This document shows positions 7,300 to 57,661 of a DNA stretch of 64,000 nucleotides, piece by piece. Both the position numbers and the translations under genes were made by a program. This DNA is from Candidatus Omnitrophota bacterium (GTDB taxonomy: Bacteria; Omnitrophota; Gorgyraeia; Ghiorseimicrobiales; Ghiorseimicrobiaceae). Under the pieces are notes generated by a model that saw only the letters and a program-made list of their open reading frames with translations, did not search any database and was not told the origin of the DNA. Numbering within the stretch: the first letter of the stretch is position 1; each line of letters opens with the position of its first letter. The stretch covers positions 64,319 through 128,318 of the forward strand of contig JAUXSB010000037.1 in assembly GCA_030681595.1 (NCBI GenBank), in the 5' to 3' direction.

Positions 7300-7303
7300 T
7301 CCA

Positions 7304-8004: not shown

Positions 8005-8349
8005 CTACCGCCTCAGGGCATAGCTTACCAAATCTGTGATGTTTCCTTTACTTGTCTCGTTAAGCTCGGTAAATCTTATGCCGGAAAGGTATTCTTCGGA
8101 ATGATTTATTCTGCTTGACCAGACAACAGTAGCTGAAGTGTTCACTAAATCCAAATGAGGTAATTCAACTTCAATCTGTATTTCTGTGCCGCGGGGAATA
8201 AAATTATTAGTCAGCAGCTTTAATCCGCCAACGCTTATGTCCCGGGTAACTGTATAAGTAGGCGTATTTTGGTTATCTTGGCGATATTTTAGGGGGATGC
8301 TATAACCAAATCTGGGAAACCTGCGTTGTTCTGAATAATCAGCCTGCAT
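8005..8349 (-). CDS. Stand-alone PilZ-domain protein.
   Basis: 'QRRFPRF' and 'TRDISVGGLKL' motifs. Confidence 0.65.
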   Translation of the reverse strand: MQADYSEQRRFPRFGYSIPLKYRQDNQNTPTYTVTRDISVGGLKLLTNNFIPRGTEIQIEVELPHLDLVNTSATVVWSSRINHSEEYLSGIRFTELNETSKGNITDLVSYALRR

Positions 8350-8456
8350 CTTATTTCTTCCCTTTCCCGTGGCTACTTAAAAATATAACATATTTTTAAT
8401 CAAAAGTCAAGCGAATAGTCGGTATTTATGAAGGGAATTAAGGGTATTTAAGCGGG

Positions 8457-12876: not shown

Positions 12877-12958
12877 ATTTTTTTACAAAAACAAATCTTC
12901 TTTTCTGACAAGGAGTTAAAGTGTAGCATATTTTCAACACCTTGTCAAGTAAAGACTT

Positions 12959-27852: not shown

Positions 27853-27868
27853 AATAGAGTTCTCCTTC

Positions 27869-35246: not shown

Positions 35247-36407
35247 TTAGATGCATGGTAGATGCGACCATAATTTGTTATTTAACTTACAGCACTTGGC
35301 ACAGGCAGGCAGTAATTTATATCTTTTTAAACGCATTCTGAAATTGGAGTATTTTTTGCCATTCCAGATTGATTTAAGCGAATTTACCCTTATGTTACCC
35401 ATCGGAATATCAATTGAGCAGGGATAGATGTTTCCGAAGGGGTCAAGCCGTGTTTCAAACCAGGGATAGAAACACCTCTGGCAATAAGCAAAATTCGGGT
35501 CAAAAAACCTCTTTTCTATTTCATCTCCTTTTAACGGCGGCCTAAAGTTTAAGGAGACGTTGTATTTTTTGGCCTTCTCTTCTGTTTTTCTAATAGATTC
35601 TTTAAGTATATTAATATCTATCTGTTTGATCTCATCATTAATATTTTGATTTTCAGGTTTAAGAGTTCCCATTTTGAGTATTTCTGATGTTTGGCTGAGG
35701 TTGCTTTCTGAGGTATAGAATAAATAGAGGAAGTTTATCATATTTATTTTTAAATCGTGCGCTACATCCACAATTTCATCTAAATTGTCTTGGTTGAGTG
35801 CGGAAATCGTAAAATTAAAGTTTACTTTAGGATTAGCTCTGCCGTTTTTAAATCTCTGTATGGTTTCAACTGTATTGTAAATTTTTGAAAATGAATCTCC
35901 TCTTCCGCGTATTCGGTTGTGGGTGTCTTTTGTCCCATCCAATGAGAAGCTAATTATTTCGTTGCCAATATTAACAAGGTCTTTGGCGGTATCGTTGTTA
36001 ATTAAGGTGCCGTTACTTATGATGCTGCAATAGATGCCCTTGTTTTTGATGTAGTCTAAAATCTCGAGCATGTCCTGCCTTAAAAAAGGCTCTCCGCCGG
36101 TAATCATTATCGCTCTTGTTTTTAGCGACTTCAGTTCATCAATAAAAGTTTTTATTTCGGCTGTATCCAGCTCCTTATTTATATCTGCGTCCGGAGCCTT
36201 TGTTTCTGTTTTCTCTTTTTTCCAGTTTGCTAAAGGGCACATTTGGCAGTATAAATTACACCTGTATGTAATTTCAAATACTACCCTAAGCGGCGTAAAT
36301 GCGTAGCCGTTTAAAAAATTATACGGAATAAGGTAGTATGGTATAAGTAAAGCATCCGTGCTTATACCCAATTTATTTGCCAGTTTTTTAATCAGAGTAA
36401 CGTCCAT
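35247..36407 (-). CDS. Radical SAM / SPASM-domain protein.
   Basis: 'YRCNLYCQMCP' (CxxxCxxC) and a C-terminal Cys-rich SPASM-like region 'CQRCFYPW...CSIDIPMG...CAKCCK'. Confidence 0.75.
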   Translation of the reverse strand: MDVTLIKKLANKLGISTDALLIPYYLIPYNFLNGYAFTPLRVVFEITYRCNLYCQMCPLANWKKEKTETKAPDADINKELDTAEIKTFIDELKSLKTRAIMITGGEPFLRQDMLEILDYIKNKGIYCSIISNGTLINNDTAKDLVNIGNEIISFSLDGTKDTHNRIRGRGDSFSKIYNTVETIQRFKNGRANPKVNFNFTISALNQDNLDEIVDVAHDLKINMINFLYLFYTSESNLSQTSEILKMGTLKPENQNINDEIKQIDINILKESIRKTEEKAKKYNVSLNFRPPLKGDEIEKRFFDPNFAYCQRCFYPWFETRLDPFGNIYPCSIDIPMGNIRVNSLKSIWNGKKYSNFRMRLKRYKLLPACAKCCKLNNKLWSHLPCI

Positions 36408-42532: not shown

Positions 42533-43867
42533 TTATTTAACATTGCTGCGAAAATATCCTAATTTTCCGCTTGGGTCTTTAGGTATAGGAGAAATAAAAC
42601 TGTATTCAACGTTTGTATCATTGCCGATATATTCACTAAGCACGTTATCAAAATGATTTTTTAAATGCGGCTTGGCATTATCGCTTGCATCTATTAAAAT
42701 CTTAAAATCGGTTAATGTATTTTGTATTACCTTGAATGCCTTTACTTCATCATAATATGGCATTTTATGCGGTATGGAAAAAATATCAGGGTGAAAATTT
42801 ATATTATTTTCAATTTTAACCATATCAGCGTCTCTGCCTATTTTTATATCCATAATTGCCAAGTTTCTTCCGCAGGGGCAGGTAGTATTTTTAAAGCTTC
42901 CCCTGTCTCCTAACTTATAGCGTATTAGCGGCATCTCATAGTTAGTTAAGTCGGTAATTACGATATCGGCTATTTCTCCTTCGCCTGCAGGCAAACCGTT
43001 ATTTAAAAATTCTACTATTAAGTTTTCTTGCGCGATATGCATATTACCGTAGGTACATTCAAAAGCGATGAGGTGAAATTCTTTGCAGCCGTATTCATTT
43101 TTTACTTTTACTCCAAATACTTGTTCGATGAGATTTTTTTGGTGTTCCCATAGGACCTCCGAGGTACAGATGATTACTTTTGGCTGATGTTTAACCATGA
43201 GTTTGCCCTGCTTTATTAAATAAGCAAATTCATATATTGAGTGGGCATAGCCATAGATTAAATCAGGTTTAATGCGATGGTAGAGGCCTAAATATTTCTT
43301 TATTGTTTCTTTAGTTATCTCTTGAGCAACAAAAAAAGTTTTATTATCTACTAATCTATCCTCTATCGCATCAAGATAAGTTCTATCTTTATCTTCTCCG
43401 CATAATTGCAGGATTCTATCTCCGATATCGATTCCATTCCAGCGTCTCCCCCGCCATTTTGCCGCCATCTGCCACGCTAGAGCGTTTTCATCTTTATAAA
43501 CTGTTATCGGCATGCCGCTTGAGCCACTGCTTCTATAATAATTTTTTTTGCTAGCTTTTTTAGAGATTAACTTATTTAAATTGGCTCTTGCTATTTCTTT
43601 TGGCAAAATAGGTATGCGTTCTAAATCAGGCCAATCCTTGATACTTTCTATGTTAATAGAATCATTATCTAATAGATTATGGTAATATTCGGTATTTTCA
43701 TAAGCGTAAGTGATAAGTTTTTTAAATTTATTCCATTGCAGATTTTTTAATTCTTCCTGGCTTTGCCACTGGCTTTTCTCAAGTTCTCGCAGTGCTCTTA
43801 ATAAAGGGATCTTTCTCTGGCTGTAGTAAAGCGGAAAAGTAATATATTTGACAATATAATTAAACAT
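42533..43867 (-). CDS. CapK / coenzyme-F390-synthetase / phenylacetate-CoA-ligase-family adenylating enzyme.
   Basis: 'RSSGSSGMPITVY' P-loop. Internal Met start chosen to avoid overlap with the next gene. Confidence 0.7.
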   Translation of the reverse strand: MFNYIVKYITFPLYYSQRKIPLLRALRELEKSQWQSQEELKNLQWNKFKKLITYAYENTEYYHNLLDNDSINIESIKDWPDLERIPILPKEIARANLNKLISKKASKKNYYRSSGSSGMPITVYKDENALAWQMAAKWRGRRWNGIDIGDRILQLCGEDKDRTYLDAIEDRLVDNKTFFVAQEITKETIKKYLGLYHRIKPDLIYGYAHSIYEFAYLIKQGKLMVKHQPKVIICTSEVLWEHQKNLIEQVFGVKVKNEYGCKEFHLIAFECTYGNMHIAQENLIVEFLNNGLPAGEGEIADIVITDLTNYEMPLIRYKLGDRGSFKNTTCPCGRNLAIMDIKIGRDADMVKIENNINFHPDIFSIPHKMPYYDEVKAFKVIQNTLTDFKILIDASDNAKPHLKNHFDNVLSEYIGNDTNVEYSFISPIPKDPSGKLGYFRSNVK

Positions 43868-43872
43868 CGTTT

Positions 43873-44583
43873 TTATAAGGAAGACGTTTTTAAAAAGTAA
43901 CGCTTGCCAGCGCCGATTAATCTTAATAAGAGATAGGCGACATTGTAGATTAGGCATAGCATAAGTGCCAACATCAGTTTATTTGTCAGCCCGCCAAGAA
44001 TAATGATGAATCCATTTATATCGGTGCCTATAGTAAATTCGCGTAAAATTGTCTTTAATATGCCGATTTTATTCTGCGCAGTTCCCATATTTATTTTAGT
44101 ATCAGTATAATTCTTTTTAGATTTTATCGCCAATATCGCTTCTTTTGTCATAAGCGAAACAATAATGTGCTGCAACATAATTACAAAAAAACCCAATGTC
44201 CATACTGTCTCTGGGTTATAATTGCGAGCTAATCCCCAGCAGACCCCGAAATAAATCACCATTTCTAAAATTCTTCCTGATACGCTGTCCAGCCATTCCC
44301 CGCGCTCGGAAACCCTGTTGGTTATTCTTGCCAAGTCTCCATCGACAAAATCTAAAAACCACGCCAGCATATATAATATTGAGCCAAACACCGCTGTCGG
44401 GTATGCTCCGAAAGAATATGAAAATGCCGAGATCATTCCGATTAATAATCCGGCTAACACAATTTGCTCGGGCATAATTTTAGAATTTTTTAGCTTATAT
44501 GCTATAAACCCTGAACCAATACGGATAAATCTATTGATATTGTAATTTGTCTCTTTGAATATATATTTATCAAATCTACCCAT
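43873..44583 (-). CDS. CDP-alcohol phosphatidyltransferase-family membrane protein.
   Basis: 'DFVDGDLARITNRVSERGEWLDSVSG' matches DG-x2-AR-x8-G-x3-D. Confidence 0.7.
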   Translation of the reverse strand: MGRFDKYIFKETNYNINRFIRIGSGFIAYKLKNSKIMPEQIVLAGLLIGMISAFSYSFGAYPTAVFGSILYMLAWFLDFVDGDLARITNRVSERGEWLDSVSGRILEMVIYFGVCWGLARNYNPETVWTLGFFVIMLQHIIVSLMTKEAILAIKSKKNYTDTKINMGTAQNKIGILKTILREFTIGTDINGFIIILGGLTNKLMLALMLCLIYNVAYLLLRLIGAGKRYFLKTSSL

Positions 44584-45331
44584 TTTCTACCTCTAATAAA
44601 GTTACCTCTATCCTGAAAAAACTATCTATAAAGTAAGAGATTATGTTATGGCAATATAAGGACAATAGGCAGCAATACCTCGAAGGCCATGAAATTTTCG
44701 CTTCACCAAACCCTGCCTGTTTTAATAGCTTAATCCAAACTTTGGGCGGCTGGTGTTTACGCCAATTGATATTTGGGCAAAATGGCGAGCGTTTCTTGAA
44801 AATGCCGAAGAAATTCTTATTAGAGTTATCGAGGATGATAAATTTCCCTCTTGGTTTCATTGTGGATTTTACTTTATTAAAAATTCCTAAATACTTACGT
44901 TGTGCGTCTAAATTAGAGTTTAATTTTATACAGGCATTTTCATCAAAATGATTTATGGACATATTCGATAGGACAATATCGAATTTTATTCCGTTAGGGT
45001 TAAAATTTTCTATGGTTTGAGGCAGGCAGTCGATATTATCTAAGTTAAGATTATTGATTAATTCGGTAAATATTTTAGCACTACCAGAGGTACTGCCATC
45101 TACTTCCGGCTCAAGGCCTATTACTCTTTTTGCCCCATTTATTTTTGCCCAGATGCTATAAACTCCATCTCCACAGCCGAGTTCCAGCATTGATTTATCT
45201 TTTAGGTCAATATCTCCAAATACCTGCTTAGCCCGGAATAATAGCTTATTCTTGGATTTATACAGCATATTATCTACTGCTAAAGCCGTGAATTTATTTA
45301 TCAAATCATTATTATTTTCTATCATTTTCAA
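44576..45331 (-). CDS. Class I SAM-dependent methyltransferase.
   Basis: Motif I 'LELGCGDGVYS'. Confidence 0.75.
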   Translation of the reverse strand: MKMIENNNDLINKFTALAVDNMLYKSKNKLLFRAKQVFGDIDLKDKSMLELGCGDGVYSIWAKINGAKRVIGLEPEVDGSTSGSAKIFTELINNLNLDNIDCLPQTIENFNPNGIKFDIVLSNMSINHFDENACIKLNSNLDAQRKYLGIFNKVKSTMKPRGKFIILDNSNKNFFGIFKKRSPFCPNINWRKHQPPKVWIKLLKQAGFGEAKISWPSRYCCLLSLYCHNIISYFIDSFFRIEVTLLEVENG

Positions 45332-47045
45332 GATCCATATTCTTATTACCGTTTAAGTGGATAATCTTAAGCCCGGATATGCCGTTTAGTTGATATTTCT
45401 TGATGATTTCTTCTTCGTTAAGCACATTCTGTGAGTCAAGGTAAATATTACCGATTAAGCTGTTATTTTCAATTGAAATAAACGGATTATTCATAAGAAA
45501 ACGTTTGATGGGTTCTGTTAATTGAGAGATTCGAAAAGCGAAGACATTGCTGACTTTTTTATCAAGTTCTACTTTTGTTTTCCATTTCGCCTTATATCTA
45601 AGCACACCGTCATTCAATAATGCCCGGCTTAGGCCTAAATCTATAGTTTTAAATCCTTTTTCGCTGGCAAATTTAAAATAAAAATAGTATAGCGCGCTAA
45701 AGGCGTCTTTTTTTAACAAGTTGATATCGCCGTTTAATAAGCCAATAAACTTGGGACGGAAGGCGCTGTTGCTTAACTCTATTACCGACCCCGATAGATA
45801 CCTATTTCCATCTTTGGCGAGCAAGAGGCCGCCCTTTTTAAAGCTTCTTTTGACTAAATTAAACGGGCTGATAATTTCTTCGCCATTATAGCGTTTGCGT
45901 ATATACGGCAGGTACATATTTTCATAAAAGAAAACCAATAGTTTTTCATCATTTTTTATAAATTCATAGGTATAGTTGCGAATTTTGGCTGTTCTAATGT
46001 CTTCATAAGCGCTGCGGTCGCGTTTTTTTCTGAAGTCTTTAAGTGAAGCGGGCGTATTAGCCCTTTGTCTAATAAATACCGGCATAAATTTTATATTTTG
46101 CCAAACACCCAGGTTTTTATTAAGATAATCAAATTTTTCTTCGGCTACTGTTAAATCCGTATTTTTCGAGATTTTTTTAAACTCAAGGTTTAATTTCTGC
46201 CTGAGGAATGTTTTAACGCGCTTTGTCACGTAGCCGTCAGGGAAAAGTAAATTGAGCAGTATTCTATTCGGCTTATTTTTGCAGATAAAAGCGGCTTTTA
46301 GGGTGTCTTTGCTTGAAGAATTCTGAATAAGGTATAGCCGTAAAAAAAACCTATAGGCAAGATCTTCAATTTTATCTCTAAGAAGATTAAGGAGGTAAAA
46401 AGGCGTTTTTACCGCTACCATAAAAAGTCTAATTAACGCTCTAGCAATGAGATAAATAGCGTTCCCGATTTTATTGTTTAGGTTACAGGAGAATTTTAAA
46501 CCAAAAAATTTTATTAAAGCCAATTTTTTTATTGGTTCAAACCCTAATTCTTGCGCCATTTTATTGGGAATTAATTCTTGTGTGTCAACTAAGATATGGG
46601 CGTTGTTAAATCTACCTTTAAGTATTTTAAATGCTTCTTGATAAAGCATGTTAGCGATGCCGTTTCCCCTAAATTCCGGTTTTATATACACTCCGTGAAT
46701 ATACGATGAGCTTTCTCTTAGTTTATATTCATATTTAAAAGGCCGAAGCACCTTGGCTATTCCGTCTGGATTTAAGATTGCCCAGCCTATCGGTTCAGAA
46801 TTATTCATTGCAATTAAGGTTTCTGAAGTATCTGTAATCATCGGCATAATTTCTGGATTTAATCTCTCTATTAGATTTATGGGTATTTTTTGGTAATAAT
46901 TTATCTCTAAATTCGGTAAACTATTCTGAGTGATAGGATTTAGCTTGTCAGGGCCAATAGTTGTCAGGTCCTTTCTGTAATGCGCCAATTCTCTTAAGCT
47001 TATTTTGGAAGCGATGATATTTTTAATTATATTGGAAATTTTCAT
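45312..47045 (-). CDS. Two-domain acyltransferase: N-terminal GNAT + C-terminal FemAB-like (Acetyltransf_6).
   Basis: GNAT motif 'HGVYIKPEFRGNGIANMLYQEA'. C-terminal FemAB-like region. Confidence 0.55.
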   Translation of the reverse strand: MKISNIIKNIIASKISLRELAHYRKDLTTIGPDKLNPITQNSLPNLEINYYQKIPINLIERLNPEIMPMITDTSETLIAMNNSEPIGWAILNPDGIAKVLRPFKYEYKLRESSSYIHGVYIKPEFRGNGIANMLYQEAFKILKGRFNNAHILVDTQELIPNKMAQELGFEPIKKLALIKFFGLKFSCNLNNKIGNAIYLIARALIRLFMVAVKTPFYLLNLLRDKIEDLAYRFFLRLYLIQNSSSKDTLKAAFICKNKPNRILLNLLFPDGYVTKRVKTFLRQKLNLEFKKISKNTDLTVAEEKFDYLNKNLGVWQNIKFMPVFIRQRANTPASLKDFRKKRDRSAYEDIRTAKIRNYTYEFIKNDEKLLVFFYENMYLPYIRKRYNGEEIISPFNLVKRSFKKGGLLLAKDGNRYLSGSVIELSNSAFRPKFIGLLNGDINLLKKDAFSALYYFYFKFASEKGFKTIDLGLSRALLNDGVLRYKAKWKTKVELDKKVSNVFAFRISQLTEPIKRFLMNNPFISIENNSLIGNIYLDSQNVLNEEEIIKKYQLNGISGLKIIHLNGNKNMDLENDRK

Positions 47046-47970: not shown

Positions 47971-49686
47971 TTAAATATACCCTAAGTTTGCAAGACGCTC
48001 CTCAATTTTTTTTGTATCGGTTTTAAAATTAGGGTCACTTTCGCGGTTAAACCTTTCGTTTTCTTCGGTTTTTCCATATTGAATAGTATTTTCTCTAAGA
48101 TAATTATCCGCAATCCCATCCTTTAGGACCTTTCCGTCTAAATTTTTTGGGATAGGTATACCTAAGAGATAAAGGATAGTGGGTACGAGATCGGTTATTT
48201 GCGCGTTTTGTATGGTTTGTGCCTTTTTCAGGTTATTGCCGTAACCGATAACGATGCCGTATTTAGTGTGGGTGCCGGATAATTTTAAGGGTTTCTCAAA
48301 AAATTCCTCTTCATCCTCAATGCTGAAAAACTTATAACTGCCGTCTTCAATTTCAAAAAATAGCTCAGGGGCGCTGTCAATATATGGGCCTGAGTAAATC
48401 TCCTCTTTTTTGTATGTATTTACTTTTAATGGCTGTTTAGTTTCGGGGTCTTTGAGGTTCTTAATTATAGCAATAATCTTATTGGATACTTCAGAGCGTT
48501 TTTCTTCGGTTTTTATAATCCCTTCGGGATTTCTTCCTGCTAAATTAAGGTATACGCTATTATCCGAGATTCCCTTGCTTGCCAGTGTTTTCTTCCAGTT
48601 TATCTTTTGCCAATATCCGTCAGCTATGTTGCTAAGGCGTTTTTCCACTCTTTTTTTTGAAATAATCTTTTTAAGAAGTCTTTTTTGGAATTTCTCCCGC
48701 CCAATTTTTATTAACGACTTTAATTTTCTGTATAAAAATAAATTTTGGTTTAAAAATCCTCTTATTAGATGTAAGGTCTTAGTGGTGCTTCTTTTCAAAG
48801 ACGAGTTATTAGGAACCAAAAGTTTATTACGTTTTAAGATGTTGTCTATGGCAACTTTTTTTTCTAAGTTTCCAAACCCGTGGTCAGACATTATGAATAT
48901 CGAAGTTTGCTCATCAATTTTGTTGATGAATTCCCCTACAATGGAATCAAGTTTTTTATAATAATCAATTATAAACGGGCGTATCTTTTCTGCTTTCTGG
49001 GGGTTGTATCTTGAGTGCGTTTTATCAATATGGTGCCAGTAAAAATGATGAAGCCGGTCTGTGCCCCCAAAAACAATAGTGAGAAAATCCCAGTCAACAT
49101 ATTCCATCAGCTTAAGGCCCACTTCCTTCTTTTGCTCTGTTTCTTTTGTGAGGTCCCTAAAGAAGCCCTCATATTTATCTTCCGCGTAATACCGGGCTTC
49201 AATGTTAAGTATATAGTCGGATTTTTTTATCCCGATTTTATCAAGCAGGTCATTAGGATAGGTAAAATCAAAGTCCGTACTCGGAGTGGTAAGACCGCAA
49301 CCGACCATAACGCCATTTATTTTAAAAGGCGGATAAGTCATGGGAAGATTGACCGAGACGCATATTTTTCCGTATTCAGAAAGTATCTCCATAACAGTTT
49401 TTGCTTTAATATCTGTTGAGGTAACAAGCTCTTTGCCGAACCTTTTATCGTGGTAGGCCTTAAAGAACGCGAAAATCCCATGTTTTCCCGGGTTGACCCC
49501 TGTCATAAACGAGGTCCAGGCAGGAGACGAAAGGCGCGGGATCGTCGATTCAAGCTCACCTGATGCGCCGTTCTCAACAAGGAACTTTAGGTTAGGCAGA
49601 AGCCCTTCTTCCATCCACGGGGTTAAATTTTTAAATGTTGCCCCGTCTAATCCCATTACCATTACTCTCGGTTTGTTTTTAGTCAT
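47971..49686 (-). CDS. Alkaline-phosphatase-superfamily protein, type I phosphodiesterase / nucleotide pyrophosphatase (PF01663)-like; paralog A (571 aa).
   Basis: 'MGLDGATFKNL', 'TIPRLSSPAWTSFMTGVNPGKHGIF' and 'IMSDHGFG' are metal-site motifs. Ends in '...KIEERLANLGYI'. Confidence 0.7.
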   Translation of the reverse strand: MTKNKPRVMVMGLDGATFKNLTPWMEEGLLPNLKFLVENGASGELESTIPRLSSPAWTSFMTGVNPGKHGIFAFFKAYHDKRFGKELVTSTDIKAKTVMEILSEYGKICVSVNLPMTYPPFKINGVMVGCGLTTPSTDFDFTYPNDLLDKIGIKKSDYILNIEARYYAEDKYEGFFRDLTKETEQKKEVGLKLMEYVDWDFLTIVFGGTDRLHHFYWHHIDKTHSRYNPQKAEKIRPFIIDYYKKLDSIVGEFINKIDEQTSIFIMSDHGFGNLEKKVAIDNILKRNKLLVPNNSSLKRSTTKTLHLIRGFLNQNLFLYRKLKSLIKIGREKFQKRLLKKIISKKRVEKRLSNIADGYWQKINWKKTLASKGISDNSVYLNLAGRNPEGIIKTEEKRSEVSNKIIAIIKNLKDPETKQPLKVNTYKKEEIYSGPYIDSAPELFFEIEDGSYKFFSIEDEEEFFEKPLKLSGTHTKYGIVIGYGNNLKKAQTIQNAQITDLVPTILYLLGIPIPKNLDGKVLKDGIADNYLRENTIQYGKTEENERFNRESDPNFKTDTKKIEERLANLGYI

Positions 49687-50923
49687 TTGGCTTAAATTTT
49701 TCTATTGTCTCAATAAGATTATTTTCCAATCTTTCCGTGGCTTTTCCCCATGTCCAGTTTTTATTTATTTCATCCAAGCCTCCTTGGCGTAAAGTCTCAG
49801 CTAATTTTTTATCGGTTAGTAATAATTCAATTGCATTTGCGAGTTCCTTTTTATCCCTATCAACCAGTATACCTGTCTGACCATCTTTTACGCTTTCGCG
49901 AACTCCGGCTTCTCTGACTCCAATAACCGGGGTACCACAGGCCATTGCTTCCAAGGGTATAAAGCCAAATGGCTCCATCAGCGGAACAAATACAACTAGC
50001 GATGCTTGGTTATATAAGCTTACCAATTCTTCATCGCCAACGGACTCTTTAACTTCTAAGTTGACTTTTTTCTTATCCGCGAGTTTTTTTAAATATTCTT
50101 TATTGGTATTGTTAGCGCGCAAACCCGTTAAAATTAGCTTTGGCCTTTTTTCCTTTGTAATAAGCGCTAGCGAATCAATTATAAAATCAAATTGTTTTAT
50201 GTATTGCACGCCGCCTACGGATAAAATAAAATTATCCTTTTGGATGCCTAAATCTCTAAACTTTTCATTATCTACTCCCAGATAGTTAACTTTTGAGTCA
50301 ATACCATAGGCTTTATAGATATATTCGCGCGTATAGTAAGAATTAGTTAATATTCTCATTGCGCTTTTGGCATTTATCCTGTCCATCCTTCCTGTTAACT
50401 TTTTGTCCAATAGATTGATCGTGTCCGATATAAAAACGAATGGATTAAACTTTCGTTTTTTTCCTTCCCCCGTCTTTTTTAGAAACTCTTCTAATGGTTC
50501 ATTGGCGTTTCTTAGGGGCGCATGGCAAAAATAAACATTGGGAATTTTTATATACCTTAAAACATATGGCGCATGTGTAAACCTGCATTGGTCAATAAAG
50601 GCAACATCATAATTTCCGCTGTTTATCTTCTGCGCTAGCTTTTTTGAAACCGCCCGTAACTTATAAAAAAATATTATTTTCTTTAAAAAATTATGAATGC
50701 TTGATAAGACATGATATTTTATCTGAGAGAATTCAAAATTCCTAATTTCAAAAATATGTTTTTTCGCGATGAATCTATCTACGGGCAGGTATCCGTTATC
50801 CCATCCGGAGAATGCGAATAGGTCAAGTTGATGGCCTTTTTTCGACAGCATCCGAGCGAATTCGTAAAATTCCCTTGCTACCCCGCCCTTGCCGGCACAA
50901 TTATTAAAAAGTGCTATCTTCAT
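49679..50923 (-). CDS. GT4 glycosyltransferase.
   Basis: 'MEPFGFIPLEAMACGTPVIG'. Confidence 0.85.
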   Translation of the reverse strand: MKIALFNNCAGKGGVAREFYEFARMLSKKGHQLDLFAFSGWDNGYLPVDRFIAKKHIFEIRNFEFSQIKYHVLSSIHNFLKKIIFFYKLRAVSKKLAQKINSGNYDVAFIDQCRFTHAPYVLRYIKIPNVYFCHAPLRNANEPLEEFLKKTGEGKKRKFNPFVFISDTINLLDKKLTGRMDRINAKSAMRILTNSYYTREYIYKAYGIDSKVNYLGVDNEKFRDLGIQKDNFILSVGGVQYIKQFDFIIDSLALITKEKRPKLILTGLRANNTNKEYLKKLADKKKVNLEVKESVGDEELVSLYNQASLVVFVPLMEPFGFIPLEAMACGTPVIGVREAGVRESVKDGQTGILVDRDKKELANAIELLLTDKKLAETLRQGGLDEINKNWTWGKATERLENNLIETIEKFKPND

Positions 50924-50935
50924 TTATTAGTCCAG

Positions 50936-52621
50936 TTAATCAATATAGCCTAAATCTGCCAGATGTTCCTTAATCTTAACCATTTCTTCCTGGGAATAAA
51001 TTTCATTTATGGGATTATCCTCGCTTTTTGCGGCAGATTCTTTAAAAATAATGGGGTTTTTATTTAAAAAAGATTCCTCGATGCCTTTTTTAAGGACTTT
51101 TCCATCCATATCATTGGGAATTGTCATCCCTAAGAGGCATAGAATGGTAGGGGTAATATCCATGATTGAGGCGTTATTTATCACTATCCCCTTTTTTATG
51201 TTAGGACCTTGCATCATTAAAATTCCTTCGCGGTAATGAAAGTTTGATATTTGTTTTGGTTCATCTATTAAAACTCCGCTATCAGGATCGGTAGAAAATT
51301 TATAACCTGAATTAGGATCTAAAACTAAATCTGGAGCGATATCAAAATAAGGGCCGTGGTATATATCTTGTTTTCTGTATATCTTGAAATTGAGAAGGGT
51401 TTGTGTTTTAGGATCAGATATTCCCTTTAGGGCGTCTATAACTTTATTATAAACATCATCAGCGTTATTTTTAGATTGGTTTATAAATATGGTAGATCCT
51501 GTATCTCCAACAAAGTAAGCTTTAGTTTTTTTCCAATCCACCAAAGAGATAAAATTCATTTGCGAATGGACTCGCTCATCTTTTCCTAAATACTGCGGAT
51601 TTTCATTTCTTTTATTAAGACGGCTTATGTTCTTAATATAATTTTTAAAATTTCGATATAAAGGCGATTTTTGTTGTAGCATGCCTCTTAATTTATCCTG
51701 TAGGCCGATAAGTAGCTTTTTGATTCCGGTTTTTTTTAATTTTAGGAGGTGTAATTTTTTCAGGAGAGTGTTTATATATATATGAGACCTGAATTGCCCA
51801 AAGCCATGATCCGAGATAATAAAAAGATGAGTATCCTTGCCAGCTTTTTCAATAAAATCGCCAACGAACCCGTCTAATTTTGAGAAATAGCCGTTTACGG
51901 CCGATTTTAAGCTATCGTTATAGAGAGGATGACTACGATCGATGTAGTGTAGCATCTTATGTTGGAGCCAGTCAGTTTCGGTAAAGACAACGGTAAATAA
52001 ATCCCAGGTGATTTTTTCCATTAAGCTCAAGGAAAATTTTGCGCGGCTTTCGGTAGATTTTTCCATATCTTTTAAAAACTCTATTTCCATACCCGGTGCA
52101 TAACAACCTAGTCTTTTTACGCTTAATATATAATCTTTTTTATCGAAGCCAAACTTTTGAAATAAATCTGGTGGATAGGTAAACGAACAATCTTTGTTGG
52201 GAGTTAATTGGCAATCGCTGACCATCGCGCCATTAATGGCAAACGGCGGATAAGTGACCGGAATGTTTATGGAAACAACGGTTTTATTTACCGCGCTTAA
52301 TATATGAAATATCGTATCGGATTTTATATCCCTCGAGCTGTTTACCGTAAGCTTTAACTTGCCGCTAAACCCCAGCTTTATAAATCCAAAAATTCCGTGT
52401 TTACCGGGATTTTTACCTGTCATAAACGATGTCCACGCAGGACCGGAATGCGCAGGCAAAGTAGAAAGCAGATCACCGCTTACTCCAGTATCCACCAATT
52501 TTTTTAAGTTTGGCATAATGCCTTCATCTATAAGCGGTTTTAAGACTTTCCATGTGCCACCATCCAAACCGATAACTAAAACTTTCGGTTTATTTTTATT
52601 AATTTTTTCGTTAGTCTGCAT
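50936..52621 (-). CDS. Alkaline-phosphatase-superfamily phosphodiesterase/nucleotide-pyrophosphatase-like protein; paralog B (561 aa).
   Basis: 'IGLDGGTWKVL', 'TLPAHSGPAWTSFMTGKNPGKHGIF', 'IISDHGFG'. Ends in '...IKEHLADLGYID'. Confidence 0.7.
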   Translation of the reverse strand: MQTNEKINKNKPKVLVIGLDGGTWKVLKPLIDEGIMPNLKKLVDTGVSGDLLSTLPAHSGPAWTSFMTGKNPGKHGIFGFIKLGFSGKLKLTVNSSRDIKSDTIFHILSAVNKTVVSINIPVTYPPFAINGAMVSDCQLTPNKDCSFTYPPDLFQKFGFDKKDYILSVKRLGCYAPGMEIEFLKDMEKSTESRAKFSLSLMEKITWDLFTVVFTETDWLQHKMLHYIDRSHPLYNDSLKSAVNGYFSKLDGFVGDFIEKAGKDTHLFIISDHGFGQFRSHIYINTLLKKLHLLKLKKTGIKKLLIGLQDKLRGMLQQKSPLYRNFKNYIKNISRLNKRNENPQYLGKDERVHSQMNFISLVDWKKTKAYFVGDTGSTIFINQSKNNADDVYNKVIDALKGISDPKTQTLLNFKIYRKQDIYHGPYFDIAPDLVLDPNSGYKFSTDPDSGVLIDEPKQISNFHYREGILMMQGPNIKKGIVINNASIMDITPTILCLLGMTIPNDMDGKVLKKGIEESFLNKNPIIFKESAAKSEDNPINEIYSQEEMVKIKEHLADLGYID

Positions 52622-52919
52622 AACCGAGTTCCTTGAGTTTATTGCGTATAGTAGTTAAATCCTGCTGAGTTAATTTAGTTTTGAGCGGTATTTCTGATAA
52701 TGGATGCTTGACGCGGCCCCATGATACTTTTTCCCAGATTCTTTCATGTAGATAAAAAAGTATGATTTTGACAGCTGCCTCTGCAAGCCCCACGCCTATA
52801 GAAAGGGCTATTTTTCTGGTAAAGATAAATACAATAATGGTCGTTGCTACCATTCCGAAAGCCCGCCAGCTGGTTGCCTTTAAGATACTGCGTTTATGTG
52901 TTTCACCCAAGTTTTTCAT
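52611..52919 (-). CDS. DUF2061-like small membrane protein.
   Basis: Two TM helices, 'WRAFGMVATTIIVFIFT' with 'AVKIILFYLHERIW'. Ends in '...IRNKLKELGYAD'. Overlaps both neighbouring genes. Confidence 0.55.
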   Translation of the reverse strand: MKNLGETHKRSILKATSWRAFGMVATTIIVFIFTRKIALSIGVGLAEAAVKIILFYLHERIWEKVSWGRVKHPLSEIPLKTKLTQQDLTTIRNKLKELGYAD

Positions 52920-52920
52920 T

Positions 52921-54198
52921 TTAATTAGTTAAAATCGCCTTTTTGACATCCATTATGCTTTTGATTTTGCTTATATCGCAGTTCTTCGCATATATAAAAG
53001 CATCATCATATGTATGCATACCGTTAAGGTGCGATTTTTCAAAAATATCCGTTTTTTCGGTCCTGCCTTTTAGGTCGTATCCTCGTTTAGGGTGCGCAAT
53101 GATATCAGCGGCGTTATCTAAATACGGCCCCGAATATATCTCTTCCCGGAAGAAAACCCTATCTATTATATTTTCATTCGTTGCAGGATCAGTAAAATTA
53201 AGCAGGCGGTTTTTAATATCTTTTCTTATATTTTGATATTCGCTTTTTTTTACCGTTCCTTTTTCTTCCCTGCCTTCTAAATTTATAAATATCCTTCCCG
53301 GAAGAAGCGAGTAGCAGACTGTGTCTTTATGATATTCGGGTAATTTTGTGCTGCCATTTGTGAATTTTAAGAGTCCTTGTTGTTTAAGCCAGGCATTAAG
53401 TTGAACCTCATAATTTATGCCGCAGAAGCCGTGGTCTGAAAGCATAATAAAGCGGTCTTCGTCGTTGAGTTTGTTTTGAAGCTCATCTATATGCGTATCT
53501 AATTTTGCAAGGAACTTTATGATATCAGGGTAGTATTCGCCTTGCATTTCCAAGTCATTCCAGAAGAAGTGGAATAATCTGTCGGTTTCCATAATATGCA
53601 ACTGGAAATAGTCCCATTCTTTGTTCTTAAACAATTCAAGCGCAATCTCAAAGCGCTTGTCCGTAGCTAGGAAAAGCTCATCCATTAATTTTCTTTTGTT
53701 TTCTTTGGCTAAGCCCGCGTCTACATCAATAATATAGTTTTTTTCTTTAAGGTATCCGGAAAAATCTGCCGGATAGGTAGATTTATTAATATCGGTGCAG
53801 AGAAAACAGGATGTAAGAATTCCGTTAACTTGTTCGGGTGGATAAGTCAATGGCACATTAATTACGATTACTTTTTTACCTTGCGCGGAAAATTCCTGCC
53901 AGATGGTTTTTGCGCGTCTTTCGCGCGCAGTAGGAATAGTTATTTGAAATGGGTTAGGGGTTCTATCCACAAAACCGAAGATATTGTGCTCTGCGGGGTT
54001 TTGCCCTGTGGCAAAGCTTGTCCAGGCAACAGATGAAACAACAGGATAAACCGAATCCATTCTTTTAGTTAAATTTTGTTTGGTGAAACTTGACAATTTA
54101 GGCATATTTTCCTGAATGAACCTATCCTGTAAAAAAGAATATGGAAAGCCGTCTATGCCTAATACAAATGTTCGTTTTTTATTTTTTCCAAATAACAT
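52921..54198 (-). CDS. Alkaline-phosphatase-superfamily phosphodiesterase/nucleotide-pyrophosphatase-like protein; paralog C (425 aa, short form).
   Basis: 'LGIDGFPYSFL', 'VYPVVSSVAWTSFATGQNPAEHNIF', 'MLSDHGFCG'. Confidence 0.7.
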   Translation of the reverse strand: MLFGKNKKRTFVLGIDGFPYSFLQDRFIQENMPKLSSFTKQNLTKRMDSVYPVVSSVAWTSFATGQNPAEHNIFGFVDRTPNPFQITIPTARERRAKTIWQEFSAQGKKVIVINVPLTYPPEQVNGILTSCFLCTDINKSTYPADFSGYLKEKNYIIDVDAGLAKENKRKLMDELFLATDKRFEIALELFKNKEWDYFQLHIMETDRLFHFFWNDLEMQGEYYPDIIKFLAKLDTHIDELQNKLNDEDRFIMLSDHGFCGINYEVQLNAWLKQQGLLKFTNGSTKLPEYHKDTVCYSLLPGRIFINLEGREEKGTVKKSEYQNIRKDIKNRLLNFTDPATNENIIDRVFFREEIYSGPYLDNAADIIAHPKRGYDLKGRTEKTDIFEKSHLNGMHTYDDAFIYAKNCDISKIKSIMDVKKAILTN

Positions 54199-54205
54199 CT
54201 TATTC

Positions 54206-55441
54206 TCACTCTGTATTGGTTATTATGCCGCCGGCGGAGATATTCTCGTTTTTCACTAATACAAAGCGCCCTATTTCGCGGATGTTTTTAAAAGTGTCAA
54301 TTACTATCGGTTTTTTGGTCTTAATGGTTACTTCGCCTATTTCTAAGTTTTCTAAACCTTGCGCGTCCGTTTCTAACAACTCTAAGCTTGAAGAGTTAAT
54401 CCGTTTATGTATCGCTTCAATTTTGCAGCTTACTTCCTGCGTTGCGCAGCGCAAGATAACCTTTTCGTCTTTACTATAGCCCTGTTTAGACATCCAGAAG
54501 ACGCTGGCGTGGAATCTATCGGAAACCTTAGGCGCTTTATCTTTTTCGCACAAGATATTGCCTCTATCTAAAAATACCGCATCCTCTGTGGTTATGCCTG
54601 TGCTTTCTTGCGCAGATGCGCGTTTAGGGCTCTCTAAATATTTTTCAATGGTTTTTACTTTGGTGGTTTGCCCTTCAGGCAATATCTTAACTTCCTGGCC
54701 TTCTCTTATCTCTCCTGTTTCAACTCTGCCTACAATAATGCGCTTATCATCTACTTTGTATATATCTTGAACGGGAAAGATAAGCGGCTGGTTTTCTTCT
54801 GCCACCTTGTTTTTAAGAAGATCAAGGCTTTCTAACATTGTAGGGCCTTTATACCAAGGCATATTAGTTGATTTATTGGCGATATTATCGCCTTTTAAGG
54901 CAGAAATGGGTATATAGAGTTTTGGCGTTATGTTTAAGGTAGTTAAGAATTTTTCTAGCTTAGTTCTTAGTTCTGTGTATTTTTCCTCGCTAAAATCTAT
55001 TAAATCAGCTTTATTTATTAATACTATCACCTGCTCTATTCCCAGCATAGAAAGTATAGTAGCGTGGCGCTTAGTCTGTTCCTGTATGCCTTCTTTTGCA
55101 TCTATTATTAAGATAGCTGCTTCGGCTTGAGAGGCGCCGGTAATCATATTTTTTACGAACTCCACATGCCCCGGCGCATCAATGATTACATATTCTCTTT
55201 TATCGGTTTTAAAGAAAACTTGCGTTGTATCAATAGTAATTCCCTGCCTGCGTTCTTCTTCTAAGTGGTCAAGAAGATAGGCGAATTCTGTATCTCTGCC
55301 TAAATCTTTGGAAGTATTTCTTATTTCTTCCATTTTATCCGGAGGCAAAGAATTAGTGTCGTAAAGCAGGCGGCCGATTAAGGTTGACTTTCCGTGGTCT
55401 ACGTGGCCGACGATGACGAATTTGAGTGTTTGATTATCCAT
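54206..55441 (-). CDS. cysN: Sulfate adenylyltransferase subunit 1 (GTPase CysN). No fused APS-kinase domain.
   Basis: '[15 protein letters not shown]', 'DAPGH', 'NKAD' G-motifs. 411 aa. Confidence 0.85.
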
Positions 55442-55442
55442 A

Positions 55443-56243
55443 TTACATATACCCCAATGATCTCAATTTCTGCATCATATAGGCGGATTCTTTGTCTTGG
55501 GCGCGTCCGCTTCTCTCTGACACTGTAGAAGTTTTTAGCTCTTCTATTATTTTGTCTATCGTGTCTGCATCGGAATCCACAGGGTTACAGCAGGTTTCGC
55601 AGCCGATACTTCTGTAACGTTTGCCGTTTTTTGCAAAATATAGCGATGTAATCGGGATATTTTCCCGCCTGACATATTCCCAGATGTCTATTTCCCGCCA
55701 GCTAAGCAAAGGATGGATTCTTAAGTGTTCTTCGTCTTTCGCCTTTGATTTATACTGATCCCATAATTCAGGCGGCTGGTCTTTATAATTCCACTCAAAG
55801 TCTTCATCGCGGGGTGAGAAAAACCTTTCTTTTGCCCGTATTCCGTGTTCATCACGCCTGATGCCTAAATACAGGGCTTTAAAGCCGTATTTTGCTATTG
55901 CGTCTTTTAAGGCGTTTGTTTTAAGCTCGGTACAGCAGGTTAATTTTTGCTTATCCGGCCCTACGCCATGCCGCATAGCTTCTTCGTTTTTGTGCACAAG
56001 GAGATTAAGGTTCCATTTTTTGGCATATTCATCGCGGAATTGGTAAATTTCCTTAAATTTATATCCTGTATCTATATGAAGCACAGGAAAAGGTAATTTT
56101 CCGTAAAATGCTTTGCGCACCATCCACAAAAGAGCAGTGGAATCCTTGCCGATAGACCAGAGCATGGCGACTTTTTTAAATTGATAATATGCTTCGCGGA
56201 TGATAAAAATACTTTCATTCTCTAATTTTGTAAGGTTATCCAT
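55443..56243 (-). CDS. cysD: Sulfate adenylyltransferase subunit 2 (CysD, PAPS-reductase fold).
   Basis: '[15 protein letters not shown]' PP-loop. C-terminus '...QKLRSLGYM' is like E. coli CysD '...LKKRQGYF'. Confidence 0.85.
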
Positions 56244-56952
56244 TTACGGCCCCTATTTTAATTTGTTTTTTTATCCTATTTTTCAAAACTTGCTCTACAG
56301 CAGGCAAATTTTCGTATGTTGTTATCTTTATATTTTCATATATTGACGGGACTAATGCCACTTTAGAGCCAATTCGCTTCACTAAATCCACGATCGGCCG
56401 ATTGGTTAGCGTGTTTTCTTTGGCGTATTCCAGCGCTTTAACGATTATTTCAAATTTATATGCTTGAGGAGCGCAGGTATAGGCAAGAGAGTCGCGCTCT
56501 AATACAGTTTCAATTTCATTATTAATCATACTCACTACTGTATGCCGCGCCGCAAGATAAGCTGTGCAGGCGCCATATTTTTTAGCGGCATTGATGCAAT
56601 TTTTTATCAATTCAGGGGGCGTGGTAGGGCTGGCCCCGTCTTGTATTACTACTATATCTGCTTTATCTATTGCCATTACCCCGTTTTCTACTGAATCTTG
56701 GCGGGTTAAACCGCCCGGCACAAGTTTTCTTAATTTCTTAAAACTATACCTCTCTAATATCTCGTTATATTTTTGCGCATAATTTTGATTTATTACTAAA
56801 TATATATCGTCTATTTCCTCTATGTTTTCGTAGATTTCTATTGTATGGATAAAAACTGCTTTCCCCAGTAACTCATAGAATTGCTTGGGCGATTCTAATT
56901 CCTTTATTCTACTGCCGCTTCCGCCGGTTAATATTATGGCTGAACAGCTCAT
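56236..56952 (-). CDS. IspD/TarI-family cytidylyltransferase (CDP-alcohol synthase candidate).
   Basis: 'AIILTGGSGSRIKELESPKQF' resembles the nucleotide-binding loop of IspD / TarI. Confidence 0.65.
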   Translation of the reverse strand: MSCSAIILTGGSGSRIKELESPKQFYELLGKAVFIHTIEIYENIEEIDDIYLVINQNYAQKYNEILERYSFKKLRKLVPGGLTRQDSVENGVMAIDKADIVVIQDGASPTTPPELIKNCINAAKKYGACTAYLAARHTVVSMINNEIETVLERDSLAYTCAPQAYKFEIIVKALEYAKENTLTNRPIVDLVKRIGSKVALVPSIYENIKITTYENLPAVEQVLKNRIKKQIKIGAVNG

Positions 56953-56953
56953 T

Positions 56954-57661
56954 TTAACTTTGCCCCCGGTGAATTTTAGAAAAAGCCGCCATTGCTTTTA
57001 TGCTTTCGTAAAAATAGTAAAGCCATACGTATATGCTAGATAGAATAAGCGTATAATATAATTTATTTAAAATACTTCCGATGATGATTAAATAACAAAT
57101 TCCCATATAAACATCGGTTATTTCCCTGATGATTGTCCTTAAAATGCCTATCTTATCCGTCTGCATCTGGTTAGGATTTGGTTTATTCGCTTGAGGGTTA
57201 TTTTTTAGTTCCAAGAGCTGGCGCTTAAATATAAGCGACTGAAAACCAAAAAACCCTGCCATAATAATAAAACCCAAAAGCCAAATAAATCCCACATTAT
57301 ATAGTTTTGCCTGTCCTAAACATATGCCCAGATATGCTAAAATAAAGGCAAGCTTTCCTGCTATGCTGTCAAATAACTCACCGGTAACGGTTTCACGTCC
57401 AAGGCATCGCGCAAGGTCGCCGTCAAGATGATCAAGCACCATAAATAGAATAAAAAATAGCAACGCAAAGAGATTAAAGATATTGGAGGCAAAAGAATAA
57501 AACAACGCTGAAAGAATGCAGCAAGCCAGCGATAGTGTGGTAATCTGATTAGGAGTAAATTTTATTTTTAATGCCGGCTTTAGCAGGAAGCGCTGCGAAA
57601 TAAACCGCGCCGCCTTTCCTAATAGATATTTGCTTTTTCTGGGGGGTTTTTTTACATTCAT
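56954..57661 (-). CDS. CDP-alcohol phosphatidyltransferase-family membrane protein (second copy).
   Basis: 'DHLDGDLARCLGRETVTGELFDSIAG'. Confidence 0.7.
   Translation of the reverse strand: MNVKKPPRKSKYLLGKAARFISQRFLLKPALKIKFTPNQITTLSLACCILSALFYSFASNIFNLFALLFFILFMVLDHLDGDLARCLGRETVTGELFDSIAGKLAFILAYLGICLGQAKLYNVGFIWLLGFIIMAGFFGFQSLIFKRQLLELKNNPQANKPNPNQMQTDKIGILRTIIREITDVYMGICYLIIIGSILNKLYYTLILSSIYVWLYYFYESIKAMAAFSKIHRGQS

Follow-up and report, generated by a model that had tools for sequence, protein, structure and literature searches.

Sulfate activation in a polysaccharide locus without a recognizable sulfotransferase

Which enzymes use the activated sulfate in a polysaccharide locus that encodes an ATP sulfurylase, but neither an adenosine 5'-phosphosulfate (APS) kinase nor a recognizable sulfotransferase? 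This question is raised by a contig stretch of 64,000 nucleotides from a Candidatus Omnitrophota bacterium (the whole stretch is called the window in the following). Here, the sulfate-activating genes cysD and cysN are followed by three paralogs of the PF01663 family, which belongs to the alkaline phosphatase (AlkP) superfamily. We named them PDE-A, PDE-B and PDE-C. Together with a glycosyltransferase gene and a gene for a small DUF2061 membrane protein they form a seven-gene block, four products of which share a C-terminal tail ending in leucine-glycine-tyrosine (LGY). A widespread and undescribed module, in which AlkP-superfamily enzymes are coupled to sulfate-activating enzymes, is the best explanation for the data presented below. 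We give a probability of about 0.45 to the reading that the locus is one instance of such a membrane-tethered sulfation module, with PF01663 enzymes consuming APS or 3'-phosphoadenosine 5'-phosphosulfate (PAPS) and with the tail serving as docking peptide.

A first-pass annotation, made from the sequence without database searches, had described the three PF01663 paralogs, the glycosyltransferase and the DUF2061 protein as lying downstream of cysD-cysN on the minus strand, and every open reading frame (ORF) was recovered at its position. The gene cysD (55443–56243) encodes a short-type catalytic subunit of ATP sulfurylase (266 aa; PF01507, PAPS_reduct, 2.5e-44) ending in LGYM. After a gap of 1 nt follows cysN (54206–55441), for the GTPase subunit (411 aa; GTP_EFTU 1.7e-50; TIGR02034). 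Next are PDE-C (52921–54198), a short and tail-less PF01663/COG3379 enzyme (425 aa; PF01663 5e-40, 138 bits, full-length profile), and the DUF2061 protein with its C-terminal LGY extension (52611–52919; 102 aa; PF09834 7e-17, residues 12–63). PDE-B (50936–52621; 561 aa; PF01663 1.4e-40, 140 bits) and PDE-A (47971–49686; 571 aa; PF01663 6e-36, 125 bits), both of the long, LGY-tailed PF01663/COG3379 type, enclose the gene of a family 4 glycosyltransferase (GT4; 49679–50923; Glycos_transf_1 3e-31, Glyco_transf_4 2e-10). Adjacent genes of the block overlap twice, by 8 and 11 nt, and are otherwise separated by 1, 1, 7 and 12 nt. The Pfam gathering cut-off is 23 bits for PF01663 and 23.1 bits for DUF2061 (PF09834), for which the window protein scored 62 bits.

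The CysDN pair is a GTP-coupled ATP sulfurylase, as defined by adjacent genes and matches to curated models. CysN exceeded the NCBIfam cut-off for TIGR02034 (378 vs 336 bits) and CysD that for NF003587 (356 vs 195 bits), while CysD stayed under the stricter cut-off of TIGR02039 (280 vs 397 bits). It is a short variant with ~35 residues fewer than 1ZUN, and it aligned to chain A of this structure through the C-terminal GY. Two papers citing the structure make no statement on the end of CysD. The window proteins were 100% identical to database entries of a Candidatus Omnitrophota metagenome-assembled genome (MAG), where they are named only “alkaline phosphatase family protein”, “DUF2061 domain-containing protein”, “GTP-binding protein” and “CysD”. 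The surrounding genes form an exosortase-type polysaccharide locus, with EpsH, Wzx, Wzy, several GT4 and GT2 genes, deacetylases, acetyltransferases and ManC; the exosortase gene is found at 27043–27948.

In a polysaccharide locus, extra cysDNC copies together with sulfotransferases are the hallmark of a sulfated polymer (PMC11641403). From this set, cysD and cysN were present in the 64-kb window, whereas cysC and a recognizable sulfotransferase were absent. The earlier statements that CysN carries no fused APS kinase domain and that no classical sulfotransferase is visible in the window both held, the first in Pfam and NCBIfam scans, the second in a motif search and in Pfam. The 5'-phosphosulfate-binding (5'-PSB, PKxGTT-like) motif of sulfotransferases was looked for in all window ORFs of 60 aa or more and was not found. 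Neither APS_kinase nor Sulfotransfer families were among the Pfam matches of the window. For the region 1–27000 these matches were the top 25 families by frequency or strength, and a weak match is possible there. The sulfotransferase slot of the cluster is thus empty in the window, with the AlkP-fold enzymes as obvious candidates for it.

A C-terminal tail shared by five protein families

PDE-A, PDE-B, the DUF2061 protein and CysD were said in the first-pass annotation to share a short C-terminal LGY motif, and they do, in the form ...L-[RK]-x-L-G-Y-hydrophobic. Read from the sequence, the tails are ...KIEERLANLGYI in PDE-A, ...IKEHLADLGYID in PDE-B and ...IRNKLKELGYAD in the DUF2061 protein. 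The tail of PDE-A (KIEERLANLGYI; 47974–48009, minus strand) matches the consensus of COG3379, vYS.EEeeeIeeRLRgLGYL. For the tail of PDE-B (KIKEHLADLGYID; 50939–50977, minus strand), AlphaFold2 (AF2) predicted a helix at residues 544–556, with a predicted local distance difference test (pLDDT) of ~80–86. In the DUF2061 tail (TIRNKLKELGYAD; 52614–52652, minus strand), L95, L98, G99 and Y100 were invariant in an alignment of 25 sequences, and the CysD tail (55446–55478, minus strand) has the CysD consensus ...MEkLR.lGYM. The four tailed proteins add 1 or 2 residues after LGY. PDE-C is tail-less, its C-terminus being ...KKAILTN, and no further window ORF of at least 60 aa was found with an LGY-type ending. 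Four of the 53 window proteins end in LGY, compared with nine internal LGY in 19,663 residues (binomial P ~1e-6).

Outside the window, loci and homologs were sampled as best hits, and the proportions given here describe the relatives closest to the queries. Among the best 120 of more than 4,800 matches to PDE-B, from many phyla, the ending was LGY in 113 and, more broadly, GY after a hydrophobic residue in 116. The tail thus seems to characterize COG3379 (“predicted AlkP superfamily phosphohydrolase/phosphomutase”) as a whole. A DUF2061 subfamily of ~100–107 aa kept the pattern KHPLSxLPV...EDMxxIKxKLKELGY[ILM] in 115 of its 120 best homologs; the generic DUF2061 proteins (~75 aa) have no LGY extension. 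Of the APS kinases adjoining PDE-C-type genes, 27 of 28 were tailed, and so were 115 of the 120 closest homologs of one LGY-tailed APS kinase (consensus YSeEEEEKIKeRLrgLGYi). The APS kinase and COG3379 tails are alike over ~19 residues (YS.EEEE.I..RLR.LGY). Nine of ten cytosolic sulfatase-fold proteins of PF00884 were tailed as well. Those inspected (from L167, where L numbers denote loci, and from the cytosolic cluster) had no CxPxR motif and had a Thr at or beside the nucleophile position when aligned by eye.

All 73 CysDs that reached the C-terminus ended in xGY[FMLW], 31 of them in LGY. The short-type CysDs nearest to that of the window mostly end in ...MQKLR[SA]LGYM, and the E. coli/Pseudomonas type in ...KKREGYF. 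The core common to the tails is an acidic stretch and, after it, hydrophobic-x-x-[RK]-L-[RK]-x-L-G-Y-hydrophobic, with 1 to 4 residues after GY. Outside the named families, the tail was absent from the 39 other ORF clusters (38 of them present in at least four loci) among the 45 listed from the fetched loci, many of these clusters being antisense shadow ORFs of real genes. The presence of the tail in orthologs had been named beforehand as a check, and it is indeed conserved there. It is a real motif across unrelated families tied to sulfate activation, namely CysD, APS kinases, the DUF2061 subfamily, COG3379 and sulfatase-fold proteins.

The tail is borne by the enzyme making the final donor, which is the APS kinase in modules with Sat and APS kinase, and CysD where only CysDN is encoded. 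This pattern is suggestive. We also considered a PEP-CTERM-type C-terminal sorting signal and rejected it: the tail has no hydrophobic transmembrane segment, inspection of the N-termini gave no signal peptide, and the bona fide PEP-CTERM proteins of the window look different.

In one locus, a 73-aa ORF consisting nearly entirely of an LGY tail (L010:11165–11386, minus strand) overlapped by 20 nt with a tail-less 680-aa PF01663 gene (11367–13409, minus strand). This is probably a frameshift or an assembly error splitting one tailed gene, and with lower probability a free-standing tail peptide.

Coupling to sulfate activation by gene order and fusion

A metagenome scan with an alignment of PDE-C gave 80 loci. 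Upstream sequence of 700 nt or more was available in 59 loci, 28 of which encoded Sat, APS kinase or CysDN within 1.5 kb of the PDE-C homolog; of the 33 loci with 3 kb or more upstream, 17 had such an activation gene. The PDE-C orthogroup, which includes the ~442-aa gene of the Sat-type modules (318–330 bits), is the PF01663 group most tightly linked to sulfate activation. A recurrent gene order was Sat, PF01663 (~460 aa), APS kinase with LGY tail, PDE-C (e.g., L096, L102, L124 and L153). In a Cytophagia locus (L005), Sat and PF01663 were joined in a single 878-aa protein (PUA_2 + ATP-sulfurylase + Phosphodiest). When the LGY-tailed APS kinase was taken as the starting point, Sat and PF01663 genes adjoined it in five out of five independently sampled loci. 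A survey of 94 neighboring ORFs from ~30 module loci, reporting families matched by at least two neighbors, gave neither a recurrent classical sulfotransferase nor a recurrent CysH.

The Sat-type modules are accompanied by a GT1-family gene (Pfam Glycos_transf_1) too. Four loci (L166, L169, L170 and L171) had an array of seven genes: GT1, dTMP-kinase-like, PF01663, Sat, PF01663, LGY-tailed APS kinase and PF01663. The dTMP-kinase-like P-loop protein has ~225 aa and the three PF01663 proteins ~480, ~463 and ~442 aa, the last being encoded on the opposite strand. The array (e.g., L169:1490–9941) occurred in several MAGs, two of them with phylum labels (Bacillota/Firmicutes and Eisenbacteria), and in L169 a Na/sulfate symporter was encoded nearby. 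It looks like a pathway for a sulfated glycoconjugate; the GT1 and dTMP-kinase-like genes of a Sat-type cluster gave generic matches only in an NCBIfam scan. CysN as universal receptor of the tail, a further candidate, was weakened by the Sat-type modules, which put the tail on the APS kinase. Because no cysN was detected in the sampled stretches of these modules, a locally encoded CysN cannot be the receptor there.

Relatives of the window kept the order cysD (LGYM), cysN, optional TauE, PDE-C (L085–L087, L022, L167 and L172), at 44–65% PDE-C identity. In L085 and L167 a DUF2061-LGY gene came after PDE-C; in L086, L167 and L172 long LGY-tailed PF01663 genes followed, and in L167 and L172 also sulfatase-fold genes and glycosyltransferases. 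Synteny of the cysDN, PDE-C and DUF2061 block in relatives was another check named in advance, and L085, L167 and L172 passed it. Together with the Sat-type modules, these loci show for many phyla that the PF01663 enzymes are coupled with ATP sulfurylase and APS kinase by gene order and fusion, in agreement with the first-pass annotation.

Selfish or accessory insertions left the order of the block intact (L167:1239–1613; L172:5429–5803 and 7251–8605). Between cysD and cysN, the gene of a 23S rRNA intervening-sequence protein was inserted; between cysN and PDE-C, it was an AbiEii-type toxin-antitoxin pair. The TauE/SafE (TSUP) anion permease between cysD/cysN and PDE-C (L022:1088–1912, L086:2235–2996, L087:9224–9985 and L089:773–1534) was the most recurrent non-core neighbor (5 of the 94 ORFs) and could import sulfate. 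It is not part of the window block.

LGY-tailed COG3379 proteins were also found in Wzx/Wzy polysaccharide clusters, with two to five paralogs in Thermodesulfobacteriota and Poribacteria, and with one copy in a third sampled cluster, on an unclassified marine metagenome contig. For two to five paralogs per cluster, acceptor-specific transferases fit better than housekeeping hydrolases.

Family, fold and catalytic site of the PF01663 enzymes

By model score, fold and catalytic residues, all three window paralogs belong to PF01663 and the AlkP superfamily. PDE-A and PDE-B are 41% identical, and a PDE-A ortholog was found in L167 (590 bits). The catalytic set D20, S/T59, D217, H221, D271, H272 and H462 (PDE-B numbering) was present in 44 of 44 aligned sequences, in every subtype, the nucleophile being Ser in 27 and Thr in 17. 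PDE-A, PDE-B and PDE-C all retain the metal ligands of nucleotide pyrophosphatases/phosphodiesterases (NPPs) and a Ser nucleophile. Four residues past the nucleophile there was an invariant Trp (S-x-x-A-W) in all subtypes, and the residue right after the nucleophile was G, A or S, not Phe. In our hand alignment to the NPP nucleophile motif, the Trp falls where the NPPs have their His, and a small residue takes the place of the base-stacking Phe. The long type, PDE-A and PDE-B, differs by an extra basic helical insertion of ~80 residues (at ~283–360) in addition to the tail.

The AF2 model of PDE-B had a pLDDT of 91.3. Its nearest solved folds in Foldseek were ENPP1, Xac NPP, ENPP5/6/7 and PhnA, at only 12–15% identity (E 1e-13 to 6e-16 for ENPP1, Xac NPP and PhnA; TM-score ~0.7 on target and ~0.5 on query length). 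No solved structure was found for any COG3379 member. The N-termini begin directly at the first catalytic strand. Since no signal peptide is apparent in these sequences on inspection, the proteins look cytosolic.

The paralogs are not canonical secreted NPPs, phosphoglycerate mutases of the iPGM type, formylglycine sulfatases or classical sulfotransferases. Canonical NPPs are extracytoplasmic and have an aromatic nucleotide-binding sandwich next to the nucleophile; neither an apparent signal peptide nor a Phe after the nucleophile was found here. An assignment to iPGM had been named as an outcome that would speak against the first-pass annotation, and the profile searches did not give it: the sole match had an E-value of 0.0073 on 30 residues, at a cut-off of 862 bits, and PF01676 is absent from Pfam. 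The sulfatase family PF00884 was reached by the window paralogs only at E ~0.006–0.01, below the cut-off.

A radical SAM protein with SPASM domain is encoded within the exopolysaccharide (EPS) locus (35247–36407, minus strand). As formylglycine maturase for the PF01663 enzymes it was rejected, their nucleophile being Ser or Thr, of which Thr is not convertible. Its best NCBIfam matches were NirJ/AhbD-like and far under the cut-off, which also speaks against this role. Radical SAM genes also adjoined LGY-tailed PF01663 genes in L081, L082, L170 and L172.

The DUF2061 protein

The DUF2061 protein of the window matches its family, and its AF2 model gave a putative two-helix membrane hairpin (residues 4–34 and 37–64), followed by a linker and the tail helix (85–98). 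This single-chain model fits both cis and trans binding of the tail. In ~35 of 80 genome loci, the DUF2061 gene was located beside a cysD, cysN, cysC or cysH-like gene. Three loci encoded fusions of an N-terminal DUF2061 with an APS kinase (L033:9995–10840, L040:9992–10699 and L041:9992–10774) and one a CysN with C-terminal DUF2061 (L062:8612–10198), all identified by tblastn and ORF span. Some database sources name even stand-alone DUF2061 proteins “adenylylsulfate kinase”. The fusions imply that sulfate activation may be membrane-anchored in several phyla. Because DUF2061 is fused to APS kinase or CysN elsewhere, its LGY tail can be read, following the Rosetta-stone logic, as a non-covalent stand-in for the fusion. 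The LGY-tailed DUF2061 genes of Aminicenantes were found in loci of the lipopolysaccharide/O-antigen type, with no cys genes nearby.

A putative sulfation module and alternative explanations

Four observations, namely the genes present, the intact catalytic set, a tail conserved in five unrelated families, and the coupling by gene order and fusion, lead us to infer a sulfuryl transfer, its donor (APS or PAPS), a polysaccharide acceptor and a binding partner for the tail. In the proposed module, CysDN would make APS within the exosortase EPS locus, and the three PF01663 paralogs would most likely consume the activated sulfate and attach it to the polysaccharide as it grows. The core member, linked to activation, would be PDE-C, and PDE-A and PDE-B would represent the type found in polysaccharide clusters. 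As in other superfamily members that transfer groups, the reaction would probably pass through a covalent intermediate, here sulfo-Ser/Thr. The tail would act as a docking helix, joining the donor-making enzymes (CysD here, APS kinase elsewhere), the consumers and the two-helix DUF2061 anchor at the membrane, so that a labile and thermodynamically costly intermediate could be handed on directly.

We extend this proposal beyond the locus more tentatively. The COG3379/PF01663 enzymes and the LGY-tailed sulfatase-fold proteins would possibly constitute a so far unrecognized class of AlkP-fold sulfotransferases, widespread among phyla and acting through a Ser/Thr sulfo-enzyme on glycans, and the LGY tail a portable docking code that assembles CysD or APS kinase, transferases and the DUF2061 anchor into a metabolon at the cytoplasmic membrane.

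Several points weigh against a sulfation module. To our knowledge, no PAPS- or APS-dependent sulfotransferase has the AlkP fold, and for an NPP-type site, hydrolysis by attack on the phosphorus of APS or PAPS would be the more natural reaction. The literature gave nothing relevant on sulfotransferases in the AlkP superfamily, and no paper was found on COG3379, on DUF2061 in sulfur metabolism, on PF01663 together with sulfate, or on this tail. The CysD tail is universal, including the assimilatory CysD of organisms such as E. coli, and therefore is not in itself evidence of a special complex here; for the same reason, the location of the tail on the final donor enzyme loses weight. The three PF01663 proteins of the Sat-type modules are tail-less, with no cysN detected in the sampled stretches. 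About half of the PDE-C-type loci had neither activation genes nor tailed neighbors within 3 kb, and in the three sampled polysaccharide clusters no cys genes were found within 10 kb of LGY-tailed COG3379. A cysC or a second cysDN may be encoded outside the window, on the rest of the 300-kb contig or of the genome, and sporadic sulfotransferases would be missed by our neighbor survey.

It is doubtful, in our view, that the PF01663 paralogs are by-product hydrolases, which pull sulfate activation forward while a sulfotransferase or reductase is encoded elsewhere. They would then be a pyrophosphatase beside or fused to ATP sulfurylase, and a phosphatase of 3'-phosphoadenosine 5'-phosphate (PAP) or an APS/PAPS-editing pyrophosphatase beside APS kinase. 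The NPP-like fold and metal site are indeed those of phosphoryl-transfer hydrolases, and the fixed adjacency of Sat with PF01663 and of APS kinase with PDE-C, as well as the Sat-PF01663 fusion, would suit such roles. ATP sulfurylase-pyrophosphatase fusions are known in eukaryotic algae, and the Sat-PF01663 pairs resemble them. In addition, some modules (L165) lie outside polysaccharide loci. The window and its relatives, however, retain PDE-C next to CysDN with no APS kinase in up to 64 kb, where no PAP would be formed locally. The CysDN reaction is already driven by GTP hydrolysis. The two to five LGY-tailed paralogs in polysaccharide clusters without activation genes are hard to explain as housekeeping hydrolases, and the modules are adjoined by no recurrent PAPS consumer, be it sulfotransferase or CysH.

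That the tails are structural elements intrinsic to each family, i.e., C-capped amphipathic helices packing in cis or in homo-oligomers, without a common receptor and with cysDN as the assimilatory copy, is improbable. Their likeness would then be due to convergence or local domain shuffling. The universal CysD tail is older than any link to COG3379, half of the PDE-C loci have no tailed neighbor, and the 1 to 4 residues after GY do not place the free carboxylate precisely. The confidence of the PDE-B tail helix in a single-chain model would likewise be compatible with packing in cis. What speaks for a docking function instead is that APS kinase, a DUF2061 subfamily and sulfatase-fold proteins have acquired the same motif of 10–19 residues specifically where they adjoin PF01663 genes, while generic DUF2061 proteins lack it and the APS kinase and COG3379 consensus sequences are near-identical. 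Moreover, the order cysD-cysN-PDE-C is kept at the PDE-C divergence given above and survives insertions of selfish genes.

The first-pass annotation had offered, as alternative to sulfation, a decoration of the polysaccharide with phospho-alcohol groups by the PF01663 enzymes, with CDP-alcohol supplied by the adjacent IspD-like cytidylyltransferase. The gene for the latter (56236–56952) and two CDP-alcohol phosphatidyltransferase genes (56954–57661 and 43873–44583) are located in the same minus-strand run, and the phosphoethanolamine transferases of glycosylphosphatidylinositol (GPI) biosynthesis carry a PF01663 domain. This alternative was not borne out and is very unlikely: homologs of IspD and CDP-alcohol transferases (CDP-OH_P_transf) were found by tblastn in 0 of 80 PDE-C loci and 0 of 80 DUF2061 loci, the conserved partners being Sat, APS kinase and CysDN instead. 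Also, the CDP-alcohol transferases already provide the transfer step, so that no AlkP-type enzyme is needed. The IspD-like gene and the two CDP-alcohol phosphatidyltransferase paralogs (56236–57661 and 43873–44583, minus strand) suggest that the locus has a phospho-alcohol (polyol-phosphate) decoration route of its own, independent of the PF01663 module.

The sulfation module, our preferred reading, would give a first functional context to two uncharacterized families, COG3379 and DUF2061. The thousands of COG3379 members in bacteria and archaea carry no annotation beyond “alkaline phosphatase family protein”. Sulfated polysaccharides of bacteria are of interest in ecology and biotechnology, and bacterial polysaccharide sulfotransferases are poorly characterized (PMC11641403, PMC7356697); the module is a concrete candidate to partly fill this gap. 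It also defines a short transferable peptide, directly testable as an interaction tag. If the PF01663 enzymes turn out to be hydrolases, a docking tail by which ATP sulfurylase, APS kinase and a membrane anchor are linked would still be new to sulfate activation.

Other genes of the window

Directly upstream of the exosortase gene, two genes for large proteins were found on the minus strand. One encodes a 1014-aa fusion of GT4, polysaccharide deacetylase and GT4 (32187–35231), and the one after it a 1046-aa PcRGLX-like (lyase-type) protein with an N-terminus resembling a carbohydrate-binding module (29050–32190). The minus-strand run with the PF01663 genes also includes a 577-aa protein containing a GNAT domain, with a long C-terminal part lacking an assignment (45312–47045). 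A 474-aa adenylate-forming enzyme of the same run, similar to PaaK and F390 synthetase (42533–43957, minus strand), gave no Pfam match, and NCBIfam matches of 1e-25 to 6e-32. These two suggest an acyl or amino-acyl decoration of the polymer. For the region 1–27000, the Pfam family counts, from which its content is known, indicated two PEP-CTERM proteins, two GNATs of the FeeM/autoinducer-synthase-like N-acyl amino acid synthase type, a sigma-54 activator with histidine kinase and response regulator, a LolA-like protein, DUF3485 (EpsI-like) and a MacB-type ABC system.

Comparison with known systems

Clusters for sulfated capsular polysaccharides (CPS) and EPS, such as that for the CPS of Vibrio sp. 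KMM 8419 (PMC11641403), likewise have sulfate-activation genes amid glycosyltransferases, Wzx/Wzy or ABC export and sugar-nucleotide genes; these clusters encode their own cysDNC copies and PAPS-dependent sulfotransferases. A further example is reportedly the xss cluster for synechan in Synechocystis (PMC8205485). The window differs from these clusters by the lack of an APS kinase, a sulfotransferase domain and a 5'-PSB motif; in their place it has three AlkP-fold enzymes, the DUF2061 anchor and the shared tail. We rate the locus as a variant of the polysaccharide sulfation cassette, without cysC or a recognizable sulfotransferase within the 64-kb window.

With the NPPs (Xac NPP, ENPP1-7) and PhnA, the window enzymes share the PF01663 match, the alpha/beta core, the six metal ligands and the Ser/Thr nucleophile. 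They differ in their low identity (12–15%), the missing apparent signal peptide, the invariant Trp, and the insertion and LGY tail of the long type. Their operon partners are sulfate-activating enzymes.

EptA/MCR-1, LtaS and the GPI ethanolamine-phosphate transferases PIG-N/O are group transferases of the AlkP superfamily with a Thr nucleophile, decorating glycans or glycolipids via a covalent Ser/Thr intermediate. The inspected LGY-tailed sulfatase-fold proteins resemble them in the Thr at or beside the nucleophile position and in the absence of CxPxR. These transferases sit in the membrane, have their catalytic domains in the periplasm or lumen and use phospholipid donors, whereas the window proteins look soluble, on the cytoplasmic side, and are linked to APS/PAPS synthesis.

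In CysN-CysC of Mycobacterium (PMC4373884) and in bifunctional PAPS synthases, covalent fusions bring successive activation steps together. The Sat-PF01663, DUF2061-APS kinase and CysN-DUF2061 fusions represent the same kind of solution. For the window we propose that the linkage is non-covalent, via the short tail, and that it extends from the sulfate-activating enzymes to the DUF2061 anchor and the AlkP-fold enzymes, neither of which belongs to a described sulfate-activating complex.

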